This document shows positions 1 through 5,138 of a stretch of DNA of 5,138 bases, piece after piece. The DNA lies in IMG/VR virus record IMGVR_UViG_2675903600_000008; one strand, 5' to 3'. The notes below the pieces were generated by a model. The model did not search any database and was not told the origin of the DNA. It was given only the letters and a program-made list of their open reading frames with translations. Every line of letters starts with the position of its first letter. Within the stretch, counting starts at the first letter, position 1. The position numbers and the translations under genes were made by a program. The DNA is from a virus (lineage: Duplodnaviria; Heunggongvirae; Uroviricota; Caudoviricetes).

Positions 1-39
1 CGCAGACGATGACGTCACTGCCCGGCTGTATGCGCGAGG

Positions 40-315
40 TTACCGACTGCGGCCTGAGTTTTTTAAGTGACGTAAAATCGTGTTGAGGCCAACGCCCATA
101 ATGCGTGCAGTGGCCCGGCATCCAACGCCATTCATGGCCATATCAATGATTTTCTGGTGCGTACCGGGTTGAGAAGCGGTGTAAGTGAACTGCAGTTGCC
201 ATGTTTTACGGCAGTGAGAGCAGAGATAGCGCTGATGTCCGGCAGTGCTTTTGCCGTTACGCACCACCCCGTCAGTAGCTGAACAGGAGGGACAGCTGAT
301 AGAAACAGAAGCCAC
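40..315 (-). CDS. insA: IS1 InsA (transposition inhibitor; N-terminal part of the InsAB' transposase)
   Basis: The 91-aa translation [37 protein letters not shown]...LKNSGRSR matches IS1 InsA from memory, including the Cys-rich zinc-finger-like N-terminus. The stop lies just past the A6C slippery site. Confidence 0.95.
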
Positions 316-347
316 TGGAGCACCTCAAAAACACCATCATACACTAA

Positions 348-370
348 ATCAGTAAGTTGGCAGCATCACC
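348..370. repeat. IS1 terminal inverted repeat (insA-side end)
   Basis: Sequence ...agtaagttggcagcatcacc ending at 370 is the reverse complement of GGTGATGCTGCCAACTTACT. The base composition changes abruptly to AT-rich non-IS DNA at 371. Confidence 0.9.
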
Positions 371-449
371 GAAGTGGTAAAGAAGATAATAAAGAATAAT
401 ATTTAGGGTTATAGGTCTTAGCCCATTTTAAATGGAAGGCAGACATGCA

Positions 450-470
450 GCCATGCATACTTCGCATGGC
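450..470 (-). terminator. Hairpin immediately 3' of the membrane-protein ORF (possible terminator or protein-binding palindrome)
   Basis: GCCATGC (450-456), 7-nt loop, GCATGGC (464-470) form a perfect 7-bp stem. It lies 8 nt downstream of the TAA stop at 478-480 on the minus strand. No clean U-tract follows, so terminator function is uncertain. Confidence 0.3.
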
Positions 471-477
471 AACATAA

Positions 478-819
478 TTATTTAGACAAACTATCTAATT
501 TTTGCGTCGCTTTTTGTGTTAGGTCGCTGTAACTGATAAACCCTACGTTAGCACCTACAATTAACACTAAGAACACTAAGCTGCATATGGATAGAGTGGC
601 AGATTTATGCTTATGGAAAACAAAATATGCTACTATTGCACTTAATATGAAGGAAATGAATAGAAATATAGATGTTGATGTTTTTAGATATTTTTCAGGA
701 AATAATGGGTGAGCAATAATGTATACAAGATTAAGTAGTATATAAATTGCTACCGGAATGAAAATCATGCTCCAGTGTGTATCTTTTTTGGGAGGGATTG
801 GCTGCAAATAATCAGACAC
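478..819 (-). CDS. Hypothetical small integral membrane protein (about 3 predicted TM helices), unknown function
   Basis: ORF of 113 aa if started at GTG 817-819, or 96 aa if started at the internal ATG 766-768 (MIFIPV...). Three hydrophobic stretches: IFIPVAIYILLNLVYIIAHPLF, IFLFISFILSAIVAYFVF, LSICSLVFLVLIVGANVGFISY, with a hydrophilic C-terminal tail. Low GC, on the same strand as and 82 bp downstream of the 125-aa ORF. I do not recognise the family. Confidence 0.6.
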   Translation of the reverse strand: MSDYLQPIPPKKDTHWSMIFIPVAIYILLNLVYIIAHPLFPEKYLKTSTSIFLFISFILSAIVAYFVFHKHKSATLSICSLVFLVLIVGANVGFISYSDLTQKATQKLDSLSK

Positions 820-901
820 CGTTTTTCCATCAGTTTCAAGAAGAATTACTAGATCTCTTACTTCACCACTGACTTGAGTGCATCCTTAGTAGTAATGTTA
901 A

Positions 902-1279
902 TCATTTTTTCCCTCCAAATACGATGCCCTCTACGTCTTTGGAAGCTTTTTGTGATGACCACTCCTCTGAATCAGGTGATTTAATTAAAAATATTGTATC
1001 TCCATCAAAAATCGTATTTGTTCCGTAAAAATTCACATTTGATAGATCACCACCAAAAACCCTCTGCCCACTCGAGGTAATTGCCTCACCTAATTTAGTA
1101 AAATTACCAGCAATAGATGATTTTCTTTTTCCACTTCTATTCAAAGTGGCTTTAATTACACCACCACCATCCTTAGAGTTAAATAATTGAATGTCCACTC
1201 CAGCAGTTGGTTGTATATATTTTGAAAGCTCTTTCTTGAACTTGTTAATATATTTATCTTTGTTTTCTTTGTTGGTCAT
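902..1279 (-). CDS. Hypothetical soluble protein (125 aa, Lys-rich N-terminus, Gly-rich C-terminal half), unknown function
   Basis: ATG at 1277-1279, TGA at 902-904. No signal peptide or TM segment visible. AT-rich codon usage unlike the flanking phage genes. A candidate promoter -10 (TATACT on the minus strand, plus coordinates 1316-1321) lies about 35 nt upstream. I do not recognise the family. Confidence 0.6.
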   Translation of the reverse strand: MTNKENKDKYINKFKKELSKYIQPTAGVDIQLFNSKDGGGVIKATLNRSGKRKSSIAGNFTKLGEAITSSGQRVFGGDLSNVNFYGTNTIFDGDTIFLIKSPDSEEWSSQKASKDVEGIVFGGKK

Positions 1280-1451
1280 TGGTTAGATCCATAGTTCTGG
1301 CTGTGATTAGGTGAAAGTATACAAGGTTTTTAAAGCGAAGATCACTGTTTTGGCTTCAAGATAGTTTTGATTTATCGTAATCAATCCGCCATAATCCTCT
1401 CATCGGAGCCTGAACAACTCCGGTGACTTCTGCGCATTTAAGGGGACTTAA

Positions 1452-1547
1452 ATGCGACCACAATCTGAACTCATCACCTTGTCACAGATGCAGAAATGCA
1501 CCTGCGATTTTCTGCATTCTGCGGTTTCCGTTAGGGAGGCCGTATGA
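1452..1547 (+). CDS. Small ORF (31 aa) coupled to ybcN; possibly the YlcH-like micro-protein found upstream of ybcN in DLP12-type prophages
   Basis: ATG 1452-1454 is preceded by AAGGGGA at 1440-1446. Translation is MRPQSELITLSQMQKCTCDFLHSAVSVREAV. Its TGA (1545-1547) overlaps the ybcN ATG (1544-1546) as ATGA. Too short for the ORF track; coding status not proven. Confidence 0.35.
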   Translation: MRPQSELITLSQMQKCTCDFLHSAVSVREAV

Positions 1548-1999
1548 CTCTGCCAGTAGACGGCATCAAACTCCATCGCGGTAACTTCGCGGCCATCGGC
1601 CAGCAGATTCAGCCATTGCTGGATGCCGGGCAATGCTTACGCCTGCAGGTTAAGCCGTGGCGCGAGAAGCGCAGCCTGTCGCAGAACGCGCTCAGCCACA
1701 TGTGGTACACGGAGATCAGCGAATATCTCATCGCCCGCGGCAAGACCTTCGCTACGCCTGAGTGGGTCAAAGACGCGATGAAGCACACCTATCTCGGCTA
1801 CGAAAGCAAAGACCGTGTAGATGTCGTGTCCGGCGAGGTCACCACCGTCCAATCCCTCCGCCATACGTCAGAGCTGGAAACCGGCGAGATGTACATCTTC
1901 CTGTGCAAAGTCGAAGCCTGGGCGATGAATATCGGCTGCCACCTGACAATTCCGCAGAGCTGTGAATACCAGCAGCTGCGCGATAAGCAGGAGGCGTAA
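1544..1999 (+). CDS. ybcN: YbcN / NinB-position protein of lambdoid prophages (151 aa)
   Basis: The 151-aa translation (MTLPVDGIKLHRGNFAAIGQQ...CEYQQLRDKQEA) matches my recollection of E. coli DLP12 YbcN in length and sequence, and it occupies the ninB slot directly upstream of ninE. Strong RBS GGGAGG at 1533-1538. Confidence 0.8.
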   Translation: MTLPVDGIKLHRGNFAAIGQQIQPLLDAGQCLRLQVKPWREKRSLSQNALSHMWYTEISEYLIARGKTFATPEWVKDAMKHTYLGYESKDRVDVVSGEVTTVQSLRHTSELETGEMYIFLCKVEAWAMNIGCHLTIPQSCEYQQLRDKQEA

Positions 2000-2169
2000 T
2001 GGCTACACCGCTTATTCGTGTCATGAACGGGCACATCTACAGAGTATCAAATCGTCGTAAGCGTAAGCCTGAGCTGAAGCCATCCGAAATACCAACACTG
2101 CTCGGATATACCGCTAGCCTGGTTGATAAAAAATGGTTGCGACTGGCAGCAAGGAGGAATCATGGCTGA
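1999..2169 (+). CDS. ninE: NinE family protein (56 aa)
   Basis: ATG at 1999-2001 overlaps the ybcN stop (TAATG). Translation [56 protein letters not shown] matches recalled lambdoid NinE. Below the ORF-track length cut-off, so I translated it by hand. Confidence 0.85.
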   Translation: MATPLIRVMNGHIYRVSNRRKRKPELKPSEIPTLLGYTASLVDKKWLRLAARRNHG

Positions 2170-2452
2170 TTTGAGAAAAGCAGCGCGTGGTCGGGAATGC
2201 CAGGTAAGAATCCCTGGCGTATGTAATGGCAATCCTGAAACGTCAGTACTGGCACATATCCGGCTGGCTGGATTGTGCGGTACCGGTATCAAACCGCCAG
2301 ACCTGATTGCCACCATTGCATGTTCTGCCTGTCACGACGAAATCGACCGCCGCACATATTTTGTCGATGCTGAGTATGCAAAAGAATGCGCGCTGGAAGG
2401 TATGGCGAGAACGCAGGTTATCTGGCTGAAAGAGGGGGTTATTAAGGCGTGA
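2162..2452 (+). CDS. ybcO: YbcO (DUF1364, putative metal-binding nuclease of lambdoid nin regions), 96 aa
   Basis: The ORF track gives 2123-2452, but the recognisable protein starts at the internal ATG 2162 ([23 protein letters not shown]...), preceded by a consensus RBS AAGGAGG at 2151-2157. Conserved Cys/His pattern (C13, C21, C40, CSACH) is present. It overlaps the ninE stop by 8 nt. Confidence 0.9.
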
Positions 2453-2811
2453 ATACCTACAGCATCACATTACCCTGGCCTCCGAGCAATAACCGCTATT
2501 ACCGCCATAATCGCGGGCGCACACACATCAGCGCAGAAGGGCAGGCATACCGCGATAACGTCACCCGAATCATTAAAAACGCAATGCTGGATATCGGCCT
2601 GGCTATGCCAGTGAAAATCCGTATTGAGTGCCACATGCCGGATCGCCGTCGCCGTGACCTGGATAATCTGCAAAAAGCCGCTTTTGACGCACTCACCAAA
2701 GCAGGTTTCTGGCTGGATGATGCTCAGGTCGTTGATTACCGCGTTGTGAAGATGCCTGTTACCAAAGGTGGGAGGCTGGAACTGACCATCACCGAAATGG
2801 GGAATGAATGA
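2449..2811 (+). CDS. rusA: RusA Holliday-junction resolvase (120 aa)
   Basis: Translation [37 protein letters not shown]...[11 protein letters not shown] matches E. coli RusA from memory. GTG start at 2449-2451 overlaps the ybcO TGA (GTGA). Confidence 0.95.
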
Positions 2812-2948
2812 TGTTTGAGTTTTATATGGCAGAATTTCTTCGCCACCGCTGGGGGCATCTGCGCTTATATCGTTTCCCCGGTTCTGTTTTGACCGATTAC
2901 CGAATACTGAAGAATTACGCCAAAACCCTGACAGGAGCAGGAGTATGA
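2811..2948 (+). CDS. ylcG: YlcG small protein (45 aa)
   Basis: ATG at 2811-2813 overlaps the rusA TGA by 1 nt (TGATG). Hand translation [45 protein letters not shown] matches the small DLP12 ylcG product as I recall it. Confidence 0.8.
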   Translation: MFEFYMAEFLRHRWGHLRLYRFPGSVLTDYRILKNYAKTLTGAGV

Positions 2949-3033
2949 AGTCAGAGATAACAATCAACTAATACTGTTTTGTTGATTTTTGCTTGTAATT
3001 GGCGTTCTGGTCTGATTTTTGTGGAGTAAGTTG

Positions 3034-3417
3034 ATGCGTGATATTCAGATGGTTCTTGAGCGTTGGGGAGCGTGGGCGGCTAATAATCATGAAGATGTGA
3101 CCTGGTCGTCCATTGCCGCCGGTTTTAAGGGATTAATTACTTCAAAAGTAAAATCTCGCCCGCAATGTTGTGACGATGACGCGATGATTATTTGCGGGTG
3201 CATGGCCCGTCTGAAAAAGAACAACAGCGATTTGCACGATTTATTAGTAGATTATTATGTAGTCGGTATGACATTCATGTCACTGGCAGGTAAGCATTGC
3301 TGCTCTGATGGTTATATCGGGAAAAGGTTACAGAAGGCTGAGGGCATAATTGAAGGGATGTTAATGGCATTAGATATCCGGTTAGAGATGGATATCGTTG
3401 TTAATAACTCTAATTAA
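3034..3417 (+). CDS. quuD: Q-family late-gene antiterminator (DLP12 QuuD-like), 127 aa
   Basis: Translation from ATG 3034 ([24 protein letters not shown]...[18 protein letters not shown]...) matches recalled QuuD, with Cys-rich zinc-binding motifs. RBS GGAG at 3023-3026. The ORF-track start at 3019 (TTG) is an upstream extension. Confidence 0.9.
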
Positions 3418-3450
3418 TATGCCAATTGTTTACTAAAAATTATTAAAAAT

Positions 3451-3468
3451 GGGGCGTTGCAACGCCCC
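3451..3468 (-). terminator. Intrinsic terminator hairpin in the convergent quuD/nmpC intergenic region (probable nmpC terminator)
   Basis: GGGGCGTTGCAACGCCCC is a perfect GC-rich palindrome (7-bp stem, 4-nt loop). On the minus strand it is followed by ATTTTTAATAATTTTTAG, a T-tract; on the plus strand it is followed by CAAAAATAAA, which is A-rich and not a U-tract. Confidence 0.6.
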
Positions 3469-3534
3469 CAAAAATAAAGGGTAATATATAACAGAAGGTT
3501 TATATAGTTAGAAGCAAGGTTGTGCTCCTAAAGG

Positions 3535-3590
3535 AAGTGGCTTGAGGGAGCCACTTATATGTTGGGGAGGCAAAGCCTCCCGCAACATAT
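3535..3590. other. Two adjacent stem-loops in the nmpC 3' region
   Basis: Hairpin 1: AAGTGGCT / AGCCACTT (3535-3542 and 3549-3556), 8-bp perfect stem with a 6-nt loop. Hairpin 2: ATATGTTGGGGAGGC / GCCTCCCGCAACATAT (3557-3590), about 15 bp with one bulged C and an AAA loop, followed on the plus strand by CTTTTAG. Function unassigned. Confidence 0.4.
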
Positions 3591-3605
3591 CTTTTAGTAA
3601 TCAAA

Positions 3606-4688
3606 TTAGAACTGGTAAACCATACCTACAGCAACGATATCATCGGTAGCAACGCCAGATGCTTTCGTGAAATCGCTCTTATCAATCAGGTTGATTTTGT
3701 AATCAACAAAAGTGGACATATTTTTGTTGAAGTAATAGGTTGCACCTACATCAATATATTCAACCAGGTCCTGATCACCCCACGCACCCAAGTCTTTTCC
3801 TTTAGATTGCAGGTAAGCAACGGACGGACGCAGACCGAAGTCGAACTGATATTGTGCAACTACTTCGAAGTTTTGTGCTTTGTTGGCAATATGGTTATTA
3901 CCAAAAACAGTCATGTTCTGGGTTTCAGAATAGGTGGTAGCCAGATAGATGTTGTTCGCATCATATTTCAGACCAGCTGCCCATACTTCAGCATTTTGAC
4001 CAGATGCATTCAGGCTGTTGTTACCGTAGATAACCTGATTATTAGTGCGGTCAGATTTAGCATAGGTTGCACCTACACCGAATCCTTCATACTCATAAGT
4101 AGTGGAGAAACCGAAACCATCACCATTAGCTTCAGTTACGTCAGTGCGGTCATTTTTACCCTGATACTGAGCAGCAAAGTTCAGACCATCAACCAGACCA
4201 AAGAAGTCGTTGTTACGATAAGTTGCAACACCAGTGGTGCGACCAGTCATGAACACATCTGTTTGAGTCCAAGTGTCACCACCGAATTCTGGCAGGACGT
4301 CAGTCCACGCACCGATGTCGTATGCTACACCGTAGTTACGGCCGTAATCGATGGAGCCGTAGTCACCGAATTTCAGGCCAGCGAAGGCAAGACGGGTTTT
4401 ATCTTTGGAGGAACCTTGAGATTCAGCGCGGTTGCCTTTGAATTCATATTCCCACTGACCGAAACCAGTCAGTTGATCGTTGATTTGGGTTTCACCTTTG
4501 AAGCCAAGACGGGCATAAGTAGTATCACCATCATCTGCATCATTAGAGGAGAAGTAGTGCTTAGCATTAACTTTCCCGTACAGATCCAGCTTGTTACTGT
4601 CTTTATTATAAATTTCAGCTGCCTGAGCAGACATCGCCATCAGTACTGATGCAGCTACAGCAGAAATTGCCACTGTTAATTTTTTCAT
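3606..4688 (-). CDS. nmpC: Outer-membrane general porin, NmpC/OmpD family (prophage-borne), 360 aa precursor
   Basis: Translation from the internal ATG 4686-4688 gives [23 protein letters not shown]|[16 protein letters not shown]..., a classic signal peptide with an AXA cleavage site and porin N-terminus. It has alternating beta-strand character and the porin C-terminal ...VAVGMVYQF. Sequence matches recalled NmpC/OmpD. The 20-codon N-terminal extension in the ORF track (to 4748) is rejected. Appears uninterrupted within this window. Confidence 0.93.
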
Positions 4689-4967
4689 CGTGAGCCCTTT
4701 TTTTGAACTATTATTAAAAAATGATGTCATTGCGCGATAAATATTCATCTAATCAATGTGATTATTTCAAGATGTAAGTTTTGGTTTCTCGTTTGATTTG
4801 TGAAGTAGATCTCTATTTTTATCTGAACTTTTTTCTATCGAATCCTATTCATGGCTCTTGACTGAATAAAAATAAATCTATTAGCCAATTTATATTAACG
4901 GCTGTTATTTATAAGTGCTCTATAATTTGAAGGTTCAATTTAAACCGGCTAAAAATAACACTGGAAA

Positions 4968-4989
4968 TTATTTGTTGGTTATTTGTTGG
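4968..4989. repeat. Perfect tandem direct repeat, 2 x 11 bp (TTATTTGTTGG), with a degenerate third copy nearby
   Basis: TTATTTGTTGG at 4968-4978 is immediately repeated at 4979-4989. A related GTATTTGTAGTGG occurs at 5001-5013. Located about 280 bp upstream of the nmpC start and about 90 bp from the IS1 junction. Confidence 0.5.
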
Positions 4990-5078
4990 GATTTGCTTAT
5001 GTATTTGTAGTGGTGTTTTCAATACTCGGTAGCATTCTCGCAAATATCATTTAGTGGTTTACGTACGTAAAAAATTGG

Positions 5079-5138
5079 GGTAATGACTCCAACTTATTGA
5101 TAGTGTTTTATGTTCAGATAATGCCCGATGACTTTGTC
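5079..5138 (-). mobile_element. IS1 insertion sequence, partial (insB-distal terminal 60 bp; element continues right of the window)
   Basis: GGTAATGACTCCAACTTATTGATAGTGTTTTATGTTCAGATAATGCCCGATGACTTTGTC is the other IS1 terminus (inverted repeat plus the 3' end of the insB frame on the minus strand), from memory. Same orientation as the IS1 at 1-370. Confidence 0.9.

Follow-up and report, generated by a model that had tools for sequence, protein, structure and literature searches.

Tn9 and other IS1 composite transposons consist of two direct IS1 copies around a few kilobases of unrelated DNA. Lambdoid prophages can also carry insertion sequences; the nmpC gene of Escherichia coli K-12, for instance, carries an IS5. 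This gene belongs to the DLP12 prophage, which has the order ybcN-ninE-ybcO-rusA-ylcG-quuD-nmpC-essD-rrrD. A third related case is the expansion of insertion sequences in Shigella, where S. sonnei has a median of about 286 IS per genome (243 to 299 per chromosome, depending on the lineage) and IS1 accounts for 42 to 59% of the insertions in the three Shigella species investigated (PMC7373316).

The window analysed here, a stretch of 5,138 nucleotides from a caudoviricete record of IMG/VR (IMGVR_UViG_2675903600_000008), resembles all three. It has two direct IS1 copies flanking a cargo, as in Tn9, but there is no common outer duplication, one of the IS1 copies is a junction formed by recombination, and the cargo lies in its ancestral position with no second copy elsewhere, leaving transposition as a unit without support. 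With DLP12 it shares the gene order and the gene families, both being defective lambdoid remnants disrupted by insertion sequences. The porin gene is intact here, however, the insertion sequence is an IS1 in the spacer between the porin gene and essD, the locus is csc/dsdA (torI) rather than the DLP12 site, and a two-gene cassette lies between gene P and ybcN. Compared with the Shigella IS1 expansion and the associated IS rearrangements (Hawkey et al. 2020, PMC7373316; Seferbekova et al. 2021, PMC8072062), nothing is different in kind: high-copy IS1, simple insertions with 8- to 9-bp duplications, gene disruption (here of cscK), inversions and deletions between IS copies, and prophage decay are common to both. 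A description of this individual csc/torI prophage-remnant locus was not found in the literature.

The window is very probably a piece of a defective, DLP12-like lambdoid prophage in the csc/dsdA locus of an S. sonnei-type chromosome, lying between two separately derived IS1 copies. It is a case of ordinary genome decay, not a transposon moved as a unit, and its biology is already known. The locus documents how IS1 insertion, inversion, and deletion dismantle a prophage and sucrose-utilisation genes in such a genome, a process that is well described genome-wide.

IS1 ends and the prophage genes between them

Both window edges lie within IS1. With the annotated 768-bp IS1 of E. coli CV839-06 (IS1A family; locus L002, 6776-7543) as reference, window positions 1-370 correspond to IS1 positions 1-370 with 98.7% identity, and positions 5079-5138 to IS1 positions 709-768 of the same element with 100% identity. 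Across annotated IS1 copies, the identity is 98.7 to 99.7% for the left piece and 100% for the right. Matches of 370 and 60 nt at 99 to 100% identity cannot be chance. The left piece contains the left inverted repeat (348-370), insA (40-315), and the start of the insB' region; the open reading frame at 40-315 on the minus strand matches both InsA Pfam domains (PF03811, 1.3e-21; PF12759, 4.7e-31), and the insB' part lies beyond the window. IS1 encodes InsA, which combines a zinc ribbon with a helix-turn-helix, and then InsB' by way of a frameshift; in relatives, the corresponding call is a 232-aa fusion protein with a DDE_Tnp_IS1 domain. The terminal repeats at 348-370 (GGTGATGCTGCCAACTTACTGAT, minus strand) and 5079-5101 (GGTAATGACTCCAACTTATTGAT) form an inverted pair with 78% complementarity, matching the imperfect repeats of about 23 bp of IS1. 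Since the minus strand is the coding strand of both pieces, they are direct repeats, and the bracketing by two IS1 ends in direct orientation, as put forward in the original prediction, is borne out. Any two independent IS1 copies share their orientation with a prior of 50%.

The bracketed segment comprises 4,708 bp of lambdoid prophage DNA (window 371-5078, block D below). Its boundaries at 370/371 and 5078/5079 are exact, with IS1-free relatives such as ETEC1731 (99.4% identity) having 370-5078 unbroken. At the left boundary, the last 29 nt of the lambdoid replication gene P (8 codons and the stop; 371-399, plus strand) remain, the rest of P being missing together with the whole early region. 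They correspond to the P gene end in ETEC1731 (L001 6030, equal to window 399), where the upstream continuation reads ...GGGATGGTGC|GAAGTGGTA.

Two phage genes of unknown function follow on the minus strand. The first encodes a 142-aa membrane protein (478-906, phrog_16940), but a 1-bp deletion at position 881 shifts its reading frame and leaves a 113-aa open reading frame at 478-819. The second encodes a 125-aa protein (902-1279, phrog_18061) and is intact. PADLOC, Pfam, NCBIfam, and PDB sequence searches gave no match for the 125-aa protein, which is assigned to its PHROG family only, and were uninformative for the 113-aa frame, with sub-threshold Pfam hits alone beside its PHROG family match.

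The plus-strand genes downstream are ybcN (NinB-like, 1544-1999), ninE (1999-2169), ybcO (DUF1364, 2162-2452), and the Holliday-junction resolvase gene rusA (2449-2811), identified from the annotation of relatives and Pfam, then ylcG (2808-2948), from the annotation of relatives, and quuD (3034-3417), a Q-type late antiterminator gene (PF06530, 3.5e-53). An intact prophage porin gene of the nmpC/ompD type, annotated as "porin OmpC" (360 aa), lies at 3606-4688 on the minus strand. From Pfam and the annotation of relatives, the arrangement is the lambdoid order P, variable slot, ybcN/ninB, ninE, ybcO, rusA, ylcG, Q, porin, holin. Functional lambdoid phages carry the part from ybcN to the porin gene contiguously, with 90 to 95% identity over window 1365-5078.

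It had also been suggested that the window could be a small circle, excised or plasmid-like, carrying one IS1 and the 4.7-kb segment and opened inside the IS1. The window does begin and end in opposite IS1 ends that share one orientation, as would be seen in a linearised circle, but IS1 positions 371-708 (338 bp) are missing, so that joining the ends would not give a complete IS1. Moreover, near-identical chromosomes (L003, L005, and L012) give different outer neighbours, cscK and essD, there is no plasmid match, and a short-read contig ending in a collapsed repeat would look identical. We consider such a circle to be almost certainly wrong.

The right IS1 and its target-site duplication

Three chromosomes, L003 (CP104423.1), L005 (CP049179.1), and L012, match window 140-5138 with 99.9 to 100% identity, and that of Shigella sonnei 4303 (L008, CP029794.1) matches window 153-5138 with 99.9%; all four include both junctions, which are also present in the IMG/VR contig L029. 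The window itself ends inside both IS1 copies, and its outer flanks are inferred from these near-identical chromosomes. The anticipated full-length copies are found there: the right IS1 measures 768 bp in the complete chromosomes (769 bp in L003), and the left IS1 also measures 768 bp but is split by an IS21-family element in L003, L005, and L012.

The inner flank of the right IS1 reads ...AAAAAATTGG|GGTAATGAC and ends with AAAATTGG (5071-5078), the inner copy of an 8-bp target-site duplication. In L003, L005, and L012 the outer copy adjoins the far end of the same IS1 (CATCACC|AAAATTGG|TTATGCTG), and in ETEC1731 the target is uninterrupted (GTAAAAAATTGGTTATGC). The insertion lies 183 bp upstream of the holin gene essD, and the outer flank toward essD anticipated for the genome of the window is AAAATTGGTTATGC. 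The right IS1 is a simple insertion that created the 8-bp duplication, its target being the AT-rich spacer that separates the porin gene from essD. The length of the duplication agrees with the 8 to 9 bp of IS1 duplications, as does the 9-bp duplication CTGCAAGCG of an insertion in cscK described below. Scanning 3400-5138 for promoters and terminators yielded no useful information on where the late promoter lies with respect to this IS1.

These flanks bear on the possibility that a Tn9-like composite moved the cassette, rusA, quuD, and the porin gene into the site together. The architecture is that of Tn9, with 4.7 kb flanked by IS1 copies in the same orientation and with intact outer ends, but the segment remains beside essD, its ancestral neighbour on the right, and all that separates the two is an IS1 that has an 8-bp duplication of its own. 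The matching outer duplications that had been named as the check are absent, with CTGCAAGCG on one side and AAAATTGGT on the other in L003, L005, and L012, the flanks being those of relatives and not the window's own. In addition, the duplication of the left copy is common to a third IS1, no plasmid carries the unit (none holds at least 80% of window 371-5078), and every genome inspected has the prophage context. Joint transposition is therefore highly improbable, and the composite-transposon part of the original prediction fails.

It is likewise very doubtful that the unit of block D and its two IS1 copies is, or could become, an active composite that transposes whole or loops out as a circle. 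Both outer IS1 ends are apparently intact in the relatives, making such activity mechanistically possible, and an active unit would carry rusA, a Q antiterminator gene, and the intact porin gene of the prophage from one replicon to another in Shigella. Loss of block D by recombination between the IS1 copies, possible for any direct repeats, has left no sign in the genomes examined.

The exact right junction is found in 0 of 5,426 complete E. coli genomes. The sole full-length match, in MS20675 (89%, gapped), was rejected as an independent IS1 located 19 bp away.

The left IS1 and the rearranged csc locus

The left IS1 has no target-site duplication of its own. Its inner flank, GAAGTGGTA, is the 3' end of gene P, and its outer flank, CTGCAAGCG, lies inside the sucrose gene cscK, where ...CCGTTACTGCAAGCG abuts the right inverted repeat of the IS1 in L003, L005, L008, and L012. 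A third IS1 lies in inverted orientation 3.6 kb beyond the left one and has the same 9 bp of cscK, CTGCAAGCG, after its left inverted repeat. The intact cscK reads CCGTTACTGCAAGCGCTCCGC at the insertion site, and the 9-bp duplication is now divided between the left and the third IS1.

The same csc locus in E. coli CEA224S has the layout csc, torI, early region, O, P, nin, Q, porin, essD. Relative to it, L003 has the 5' part of cscK in forward orientation, a 768-bp IS1, positions 10782 to 7214 of L026 inverted (3,569 bp), and the left IS1, followed by block D, the right IS1, and essD. The early phage region has no match in L003 in the alignment with CEA224S. The cscK-cscB-torI block has thus been inverted, and a deletion has removed about 9 kb of early phage genes. 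An initial idea from ETEC1731, with the prophage at icd and the left IS1 joining distant loci through a megabase-scale inversion, was rejected because a related lambdoid prophage adjoins cscB-torI in CEA224S; the rearrangement is local.

The proposal of an IS1-mediated rearrangement consequently holds for the left copy, an inversion-plus-deletion junction, and not for the right copy, a simple insertion. The suggestion that IS1 explains the genes missing upstream of ybcN is right in a modified form: the loss comprises the whole early region and all but the last 29 nt of P, and the two-gene cassette directly before ybcN is normal for the lineage and present in IS1-free relatives.

An IS21-family element interrupts the left IS1 at window 140-143 in L003, L005, L012, and L029, where the contig L029 breaks at window position 140. 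The left IS1 of the window is uninterrupted, indicating that its exact source is a related strain and none of these four. In S. sonnei 4303, the only IS21-free relative retrieved, the IS1 copies measure 822 and 464 bp and are malformed, probably through assembly errors. The uninterrupted copy leaves room, in principle, for a source in an earlier state, with two independent simple IS1 insertions, the left one having an intact GAAGTGGTA duplication and the rest of P beyond it. However, window 140-5138 agrees with L003 at every base, the frameshift at 881 included, so that the source belongs to the lineage in which the rearrangement is already present, and the IS21-free S. sonnei 4303 already has cscK on the far side. 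Neither the left junction nor any IS1 at this P site occurs among the 5,426 complete E. coli genomes. We regard two simple insertions as unlikely. An exact-pattern scan of species-representative genomes gave no match to the left junction either, as expected if Shigella is not separated from E. coli there.

Proposed history and the window edges

The preferred reading, of two separately derived IS1 copies in a decaying prophage, can be phrased in terms of five ancestral blocks: A, cscA and the 5' part of cscK; B, the 3' part of cscK, cscB, torI, and two hypothetical genes; C, the phage early region through gene P; D, window 371-5078; and E, essD and the lysis genes. IS1 would first have inserted into cscK, making the 9-bp duplication CTGCAAGCG. 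The two ends of this IS1 now lie in the two inverted IS1 copies bordering the inverted 3.6-kb block B, and block C of about 9 kb has been deleted, giving the present order A, IS1, B inverted, IS1, D, IS1, E. The order of events, which we infer from the observed junction sequences, duplications, inversion, and deletion, may have followed either of two routes: duplicative inversion of IS1 into P, or homologous recombination between inverted IS1 copies, each with a subsequent adjacent deletion. Neither route leaves a distinguishing duplication. Block D stands in its original place and orientation beside block E, so the IS1 pair does not come from composite transposition and block D has been carried nowhere.

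The IS1 pieces at the window edges are most likely short-read assembly breaks in a high-copy repeat, and the window appears to be a whole short-read contig, judging from the sizes of contigs that carry the 125-aa protein. The longest such contig measures 2 to 5 kb in 6,298 of 12,488 collection blocks and 5 to 10 kb in a further 1,062, which fits a unique segment of 4.7 kb with repeat overhangs. A contig or window bounded by opposite ends of a high-copy insertion sequence mimics a composite transposon or a circle, an appearance that assembly breaks and independent insertions close to one another are expected to produce in IS-rich genomes. IS-bounded contigs therefore need testing by target-site duplications and IS-free relatives.

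The 20-kb L003 locus by itself contains three IS1 copies, one IS21-family element, and one IS3-family element; in L005, an IS4-family transposase fragment is called at the same position. Position 112 is the only difference between the left IS1 piece of the window and the neighbouring IS1 copies of L005.

IS1 ends and the relatives that share them

Both edges of the window are partial IS1 copies. Window 1-370 corresponds to IS1 positions 1-370, the left end, on the minus strand, with 98.7% identity to a 768-bp IS1A-family element annotated in E. coli CV839-06 (L002, 6776-7543), and window 5079-5138 matches positions 709-768 of the same element at 100%, also on the minus strand. Terminal inverted repeats were located at 348-370 and 5079-5101 (inverted pair I1), an InsA ORF at 40-315 on the minus strand carries PF03811 and PF12759, and between them the two pieces show every IS1 feature tested. 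Since both lie on the minus strand, they are direct repeats, and the alignment to the annotated element bears out the original prediction that directly repeated IS1 ends bracket window 371-5078. The boundaries are exact, as IS1-free relatives have window 370-5078 unbroken, for example ETEC1731 at 99.4% identity. Window 112 is G versus T in the neighbouring IS1 copies of two relatives (L003 and L005), the sole difference over 370 bp.

Near-identical loci were found by a look-up with the 125-aa protein of the segment, and the chromosomes returned are IS-rich. L003 (CP104423.1), L005 (CP049179.1), and L012 match window 140-5138 at 99.9-100%, and L008 (CP029794.1), whose assembly GCA_002073875.2 is Shigella sonnei 4303 (PMC6201595), matches window 153-5138 at 99.9%. 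All four have both junctions and a 1-bp frameshift at window 881, and the IMG/VR contig L029 likewise has both junctions. Neither the left junction nor the exact right junction occurs in any of the 5,426 complete E. coli genomes searched.

A 2,135-bp insert (L003 11141-13270) interrupts the left IS1 of L003, L005, and L012 at window position 140-143. It has a 4-bp duplication, ATAT, and we assign it to the IS21 family because it encodes 390-aa IstA-like and 265-aa IstB-like proteins; L029 shows the same alignment break at 140-143, taken as the same insert. The left IS1 of the window is unsplit and free of this nested element, so its source is a related strain and none of L003, L005, L012, and L029. 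The nested insertion could serve as a lineage marker.

Two IS1 copies with different histories

The inner junction of the right IS1 reads ...GTAAAAAATTGG/GGTAATGAC and the outer junction ...GCAGCATCACC/AAAATTGG/TTATGCTG in L003, L005, and L012, where ETEC1731 has the unbroken target GTAAAAAATTGGTTATGCTG. These junctions mark the right IS1 as a simple insertion that has an 8-bp duplication of its own. It sits 183 bp upstream of essD and 390 bp upstream of the porin start codon. The porin-essD spacer looks like a recurrent IS1 target, because E. coli MS20675 (L015, 7140-7220) has its own IS1, a different sequence variant that inserted independently 19 bp rightward of this site. That copy has the same orientation and lies at the true DLP12 locus near cusS, with non-prophage DNA beyond.

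The left IS1 has no duplication, as its inner flank is GAAGTGGTA, the 3' end of the replication gene P, versus ...CCGTTACTGCAAGCG on its outer side. The outer sequence belongs to cscK and is 133 bp upstream of cscB; cscK encodes the fructokinase in the sucrose operon and is labelled "aminoimidazole riboside kinase" in these records. Another 3.6 kb outward is a third IS1, inverted relative to the other two, and the sequence after it is CTGCAAGCG/CTCCGCAACG, the rest of cscK, which reads CCGTTACTGCAAGCGCTCCGC when intact. The 9-bp duplication is thus split across the left and third copies, indicating one original cscK insertion whose ends are now on two inverted copies. In these S. sonnei-type loci the csc genes are broken up: the cscK 5' part is followed by the inverted cscK 3' part with cscB, which fits a loss of sucrose use. 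An IS3-family element breaks cscK further in L003 and L005 (18150-19700).

The ancestral order is provided by E. coli CEA224S (L026), where a related lambdoid prophage occupies this same site, arranged dsdA-cscR-cscA-cscK-cscB-torI-two hypothetical genes-early region (exo, bet, gam, N, cI, O, P)-nin region-rusA-quuD-porin-essD. We aligned L003, in window orientation, to this locus and defined block A as cscA and the cscK 5' part, B as the cscK 3' part through a 200-aa hypothetical gene, C as the early region through P, D as window 371-5078, and E as essD onward. L003 has the cscK 5' part forward, a 768-bp IS1, B inverted (L026 10782 to 7214, 3,569 bp), the left IS1, D, the right IS1, and E, with no trace of block C in this alignment, so that the present layout, as read from the alignment, is A - IS1 - B inverted - IS1 - D - IS1 - E. 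Relative to E, block D has stayed in its ancestral place and orientation. At the level of aligned sequence, this shows an inversion of B and an approximately 9-kb deletion of C. As to order and mechanism, we infer one of two routes: an IS1 duplicative inversion into P may have been followed by an adjacent deletion, or the same deletion may have followed recombination between inverted IS1 copies.

An IS1-mediated rearrangement, one of the readings in the original prediction, therefore holds for the left IS1 with its csc/P junction and not for the right one, a simple insertion with its own duplication. Similarly, the suggestion that IS1 removed upstream genes is correct for the lost early region, but nothing is lost between the P-proximal cassette and ybcN. 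The pair shares the architecture of Tn9, but the tests applied for composite transposition contradict a composite transposon: the right copy carries a duplication of its own, the sequences outside the two copies do not match (CTGCAAGCG versus AAAATTGGT), and the cargo is unmoved. The plasmid search found no plasmid carrying at least 80% of the unit. A small circle with one IS1 is contradicted as well, as IS1 positions 371-708 (338 bp) are missing from the window, so its ends do not close into one element, and complete chromosomes have two copies with different outer neighbours. Mechanistically, the two copies might still behave as a composite element or let the segment loop out, an improbable reading for which no support was found.

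The segment between the IS1 copies

Gene order was taken from the annotation of relatives and Pfam matches. The segment starts with the last 29 nt of P (371-399), followed by two leftward genes with no assigned function, then by ybcN, ninE, ybcO, rusA, ylcG, and quuD, and ends with an intact nmpC/ompD-type porin gene, also leftward, an arrangement like the nin-Q-porin module of DLP12. In IS1-free prophages the same stretch extends from P to the holin gene essD, and window 1365-5078 is contiguous in functional lambdoid phages at 90-95% identity.

Sixteen substitutions relative to ETEC1731 cluster in the porin gene at window 4266-4413 and 4563-4581; elsewhere the 4.7-kb segment differs at a handful of sites only. 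In each stretch the intervals between them are multiples of 3 nt, as would be expected of third codon positions, and the pattern suggests a tract acquired by recombination from a diverged porin allele that was under purifying selection. Immediately upstream of the porin start codon, the T-run at 4698-4704 (plus-strand reading) has one base fewer than in ETEC1731, a difference falling in the 5' leader or ribosome-binding region.

The two-gene cassette lies in AT-rich DNA at 478-1279 on the minus strand, opposite to P and ybcN, and encodes a predicted 142-aa membrane protein (phrog_16940) and a 125-aa protein (phrog_18061), neither with an informative match in Pfam, NCBIfam, PADLOC, or PDB sequence searches. 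It is a normal though variable occupant of the P-ybcN slot, which holds ren or an AraC/PEBP/recombinase/EmrE set in other related prophages, and could be a moron with, for example, an exclusion or defence function. The 1-bp deletion at 881 (CC versus CCC in ETEC1731) frameshifts the 142-aa gene, leaving an ORF of 113 aa (478-819). Because L003 has the same state, being 100% identical around this position, we regard it as a lineage pseudogene and not a read error. In CV839-06 (L002 6776-7543), whose prophage is otherwise 99.4% identical, the 125-aa gene is interrupted at window 1134-1143 by an independent IS1 that points the opposite way and has a duplication of about 9 bp.

IS load and assembly

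The median S. sonnei genome contains about 286 IS copies, with 243-299 per chromosome depending on lineage, and in the three Shigella species studied IS1 accounts for 42-59% of insertions (PMC7373316). Within 20 kb, L003 contains IS1 three times, along with elements of the IS21 and IS3 families. In Shigella genomes, expansion of IS elements, pseudogenisation, inversions, and deletions are established, according to two studies (PMC7373316; PMC8072062), and IS1 insertion, inversion, and deletion at this locus belong to that established genome biology.

Among 12,488 collection blocks with the 125-aa protein, the longest contig carrying it was only 2-5 kb in 6,298 and 5-10 kb in 1,062, as expected when short-read assembly collapses the repeats on both sides of a 4.7-kb unique segment. 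We infer that the 5,138-bp window is a short-read contig broken in IS1, or an equivalent. At 464 bp and 822 bp, the IS1 copies of S. sonnei 4303 (L008 5738-6201 and 10911-11732) depart from the usual length of 768 bp, and part of insA is duplicated; they are probably assembly errors in repeats, not real variants.
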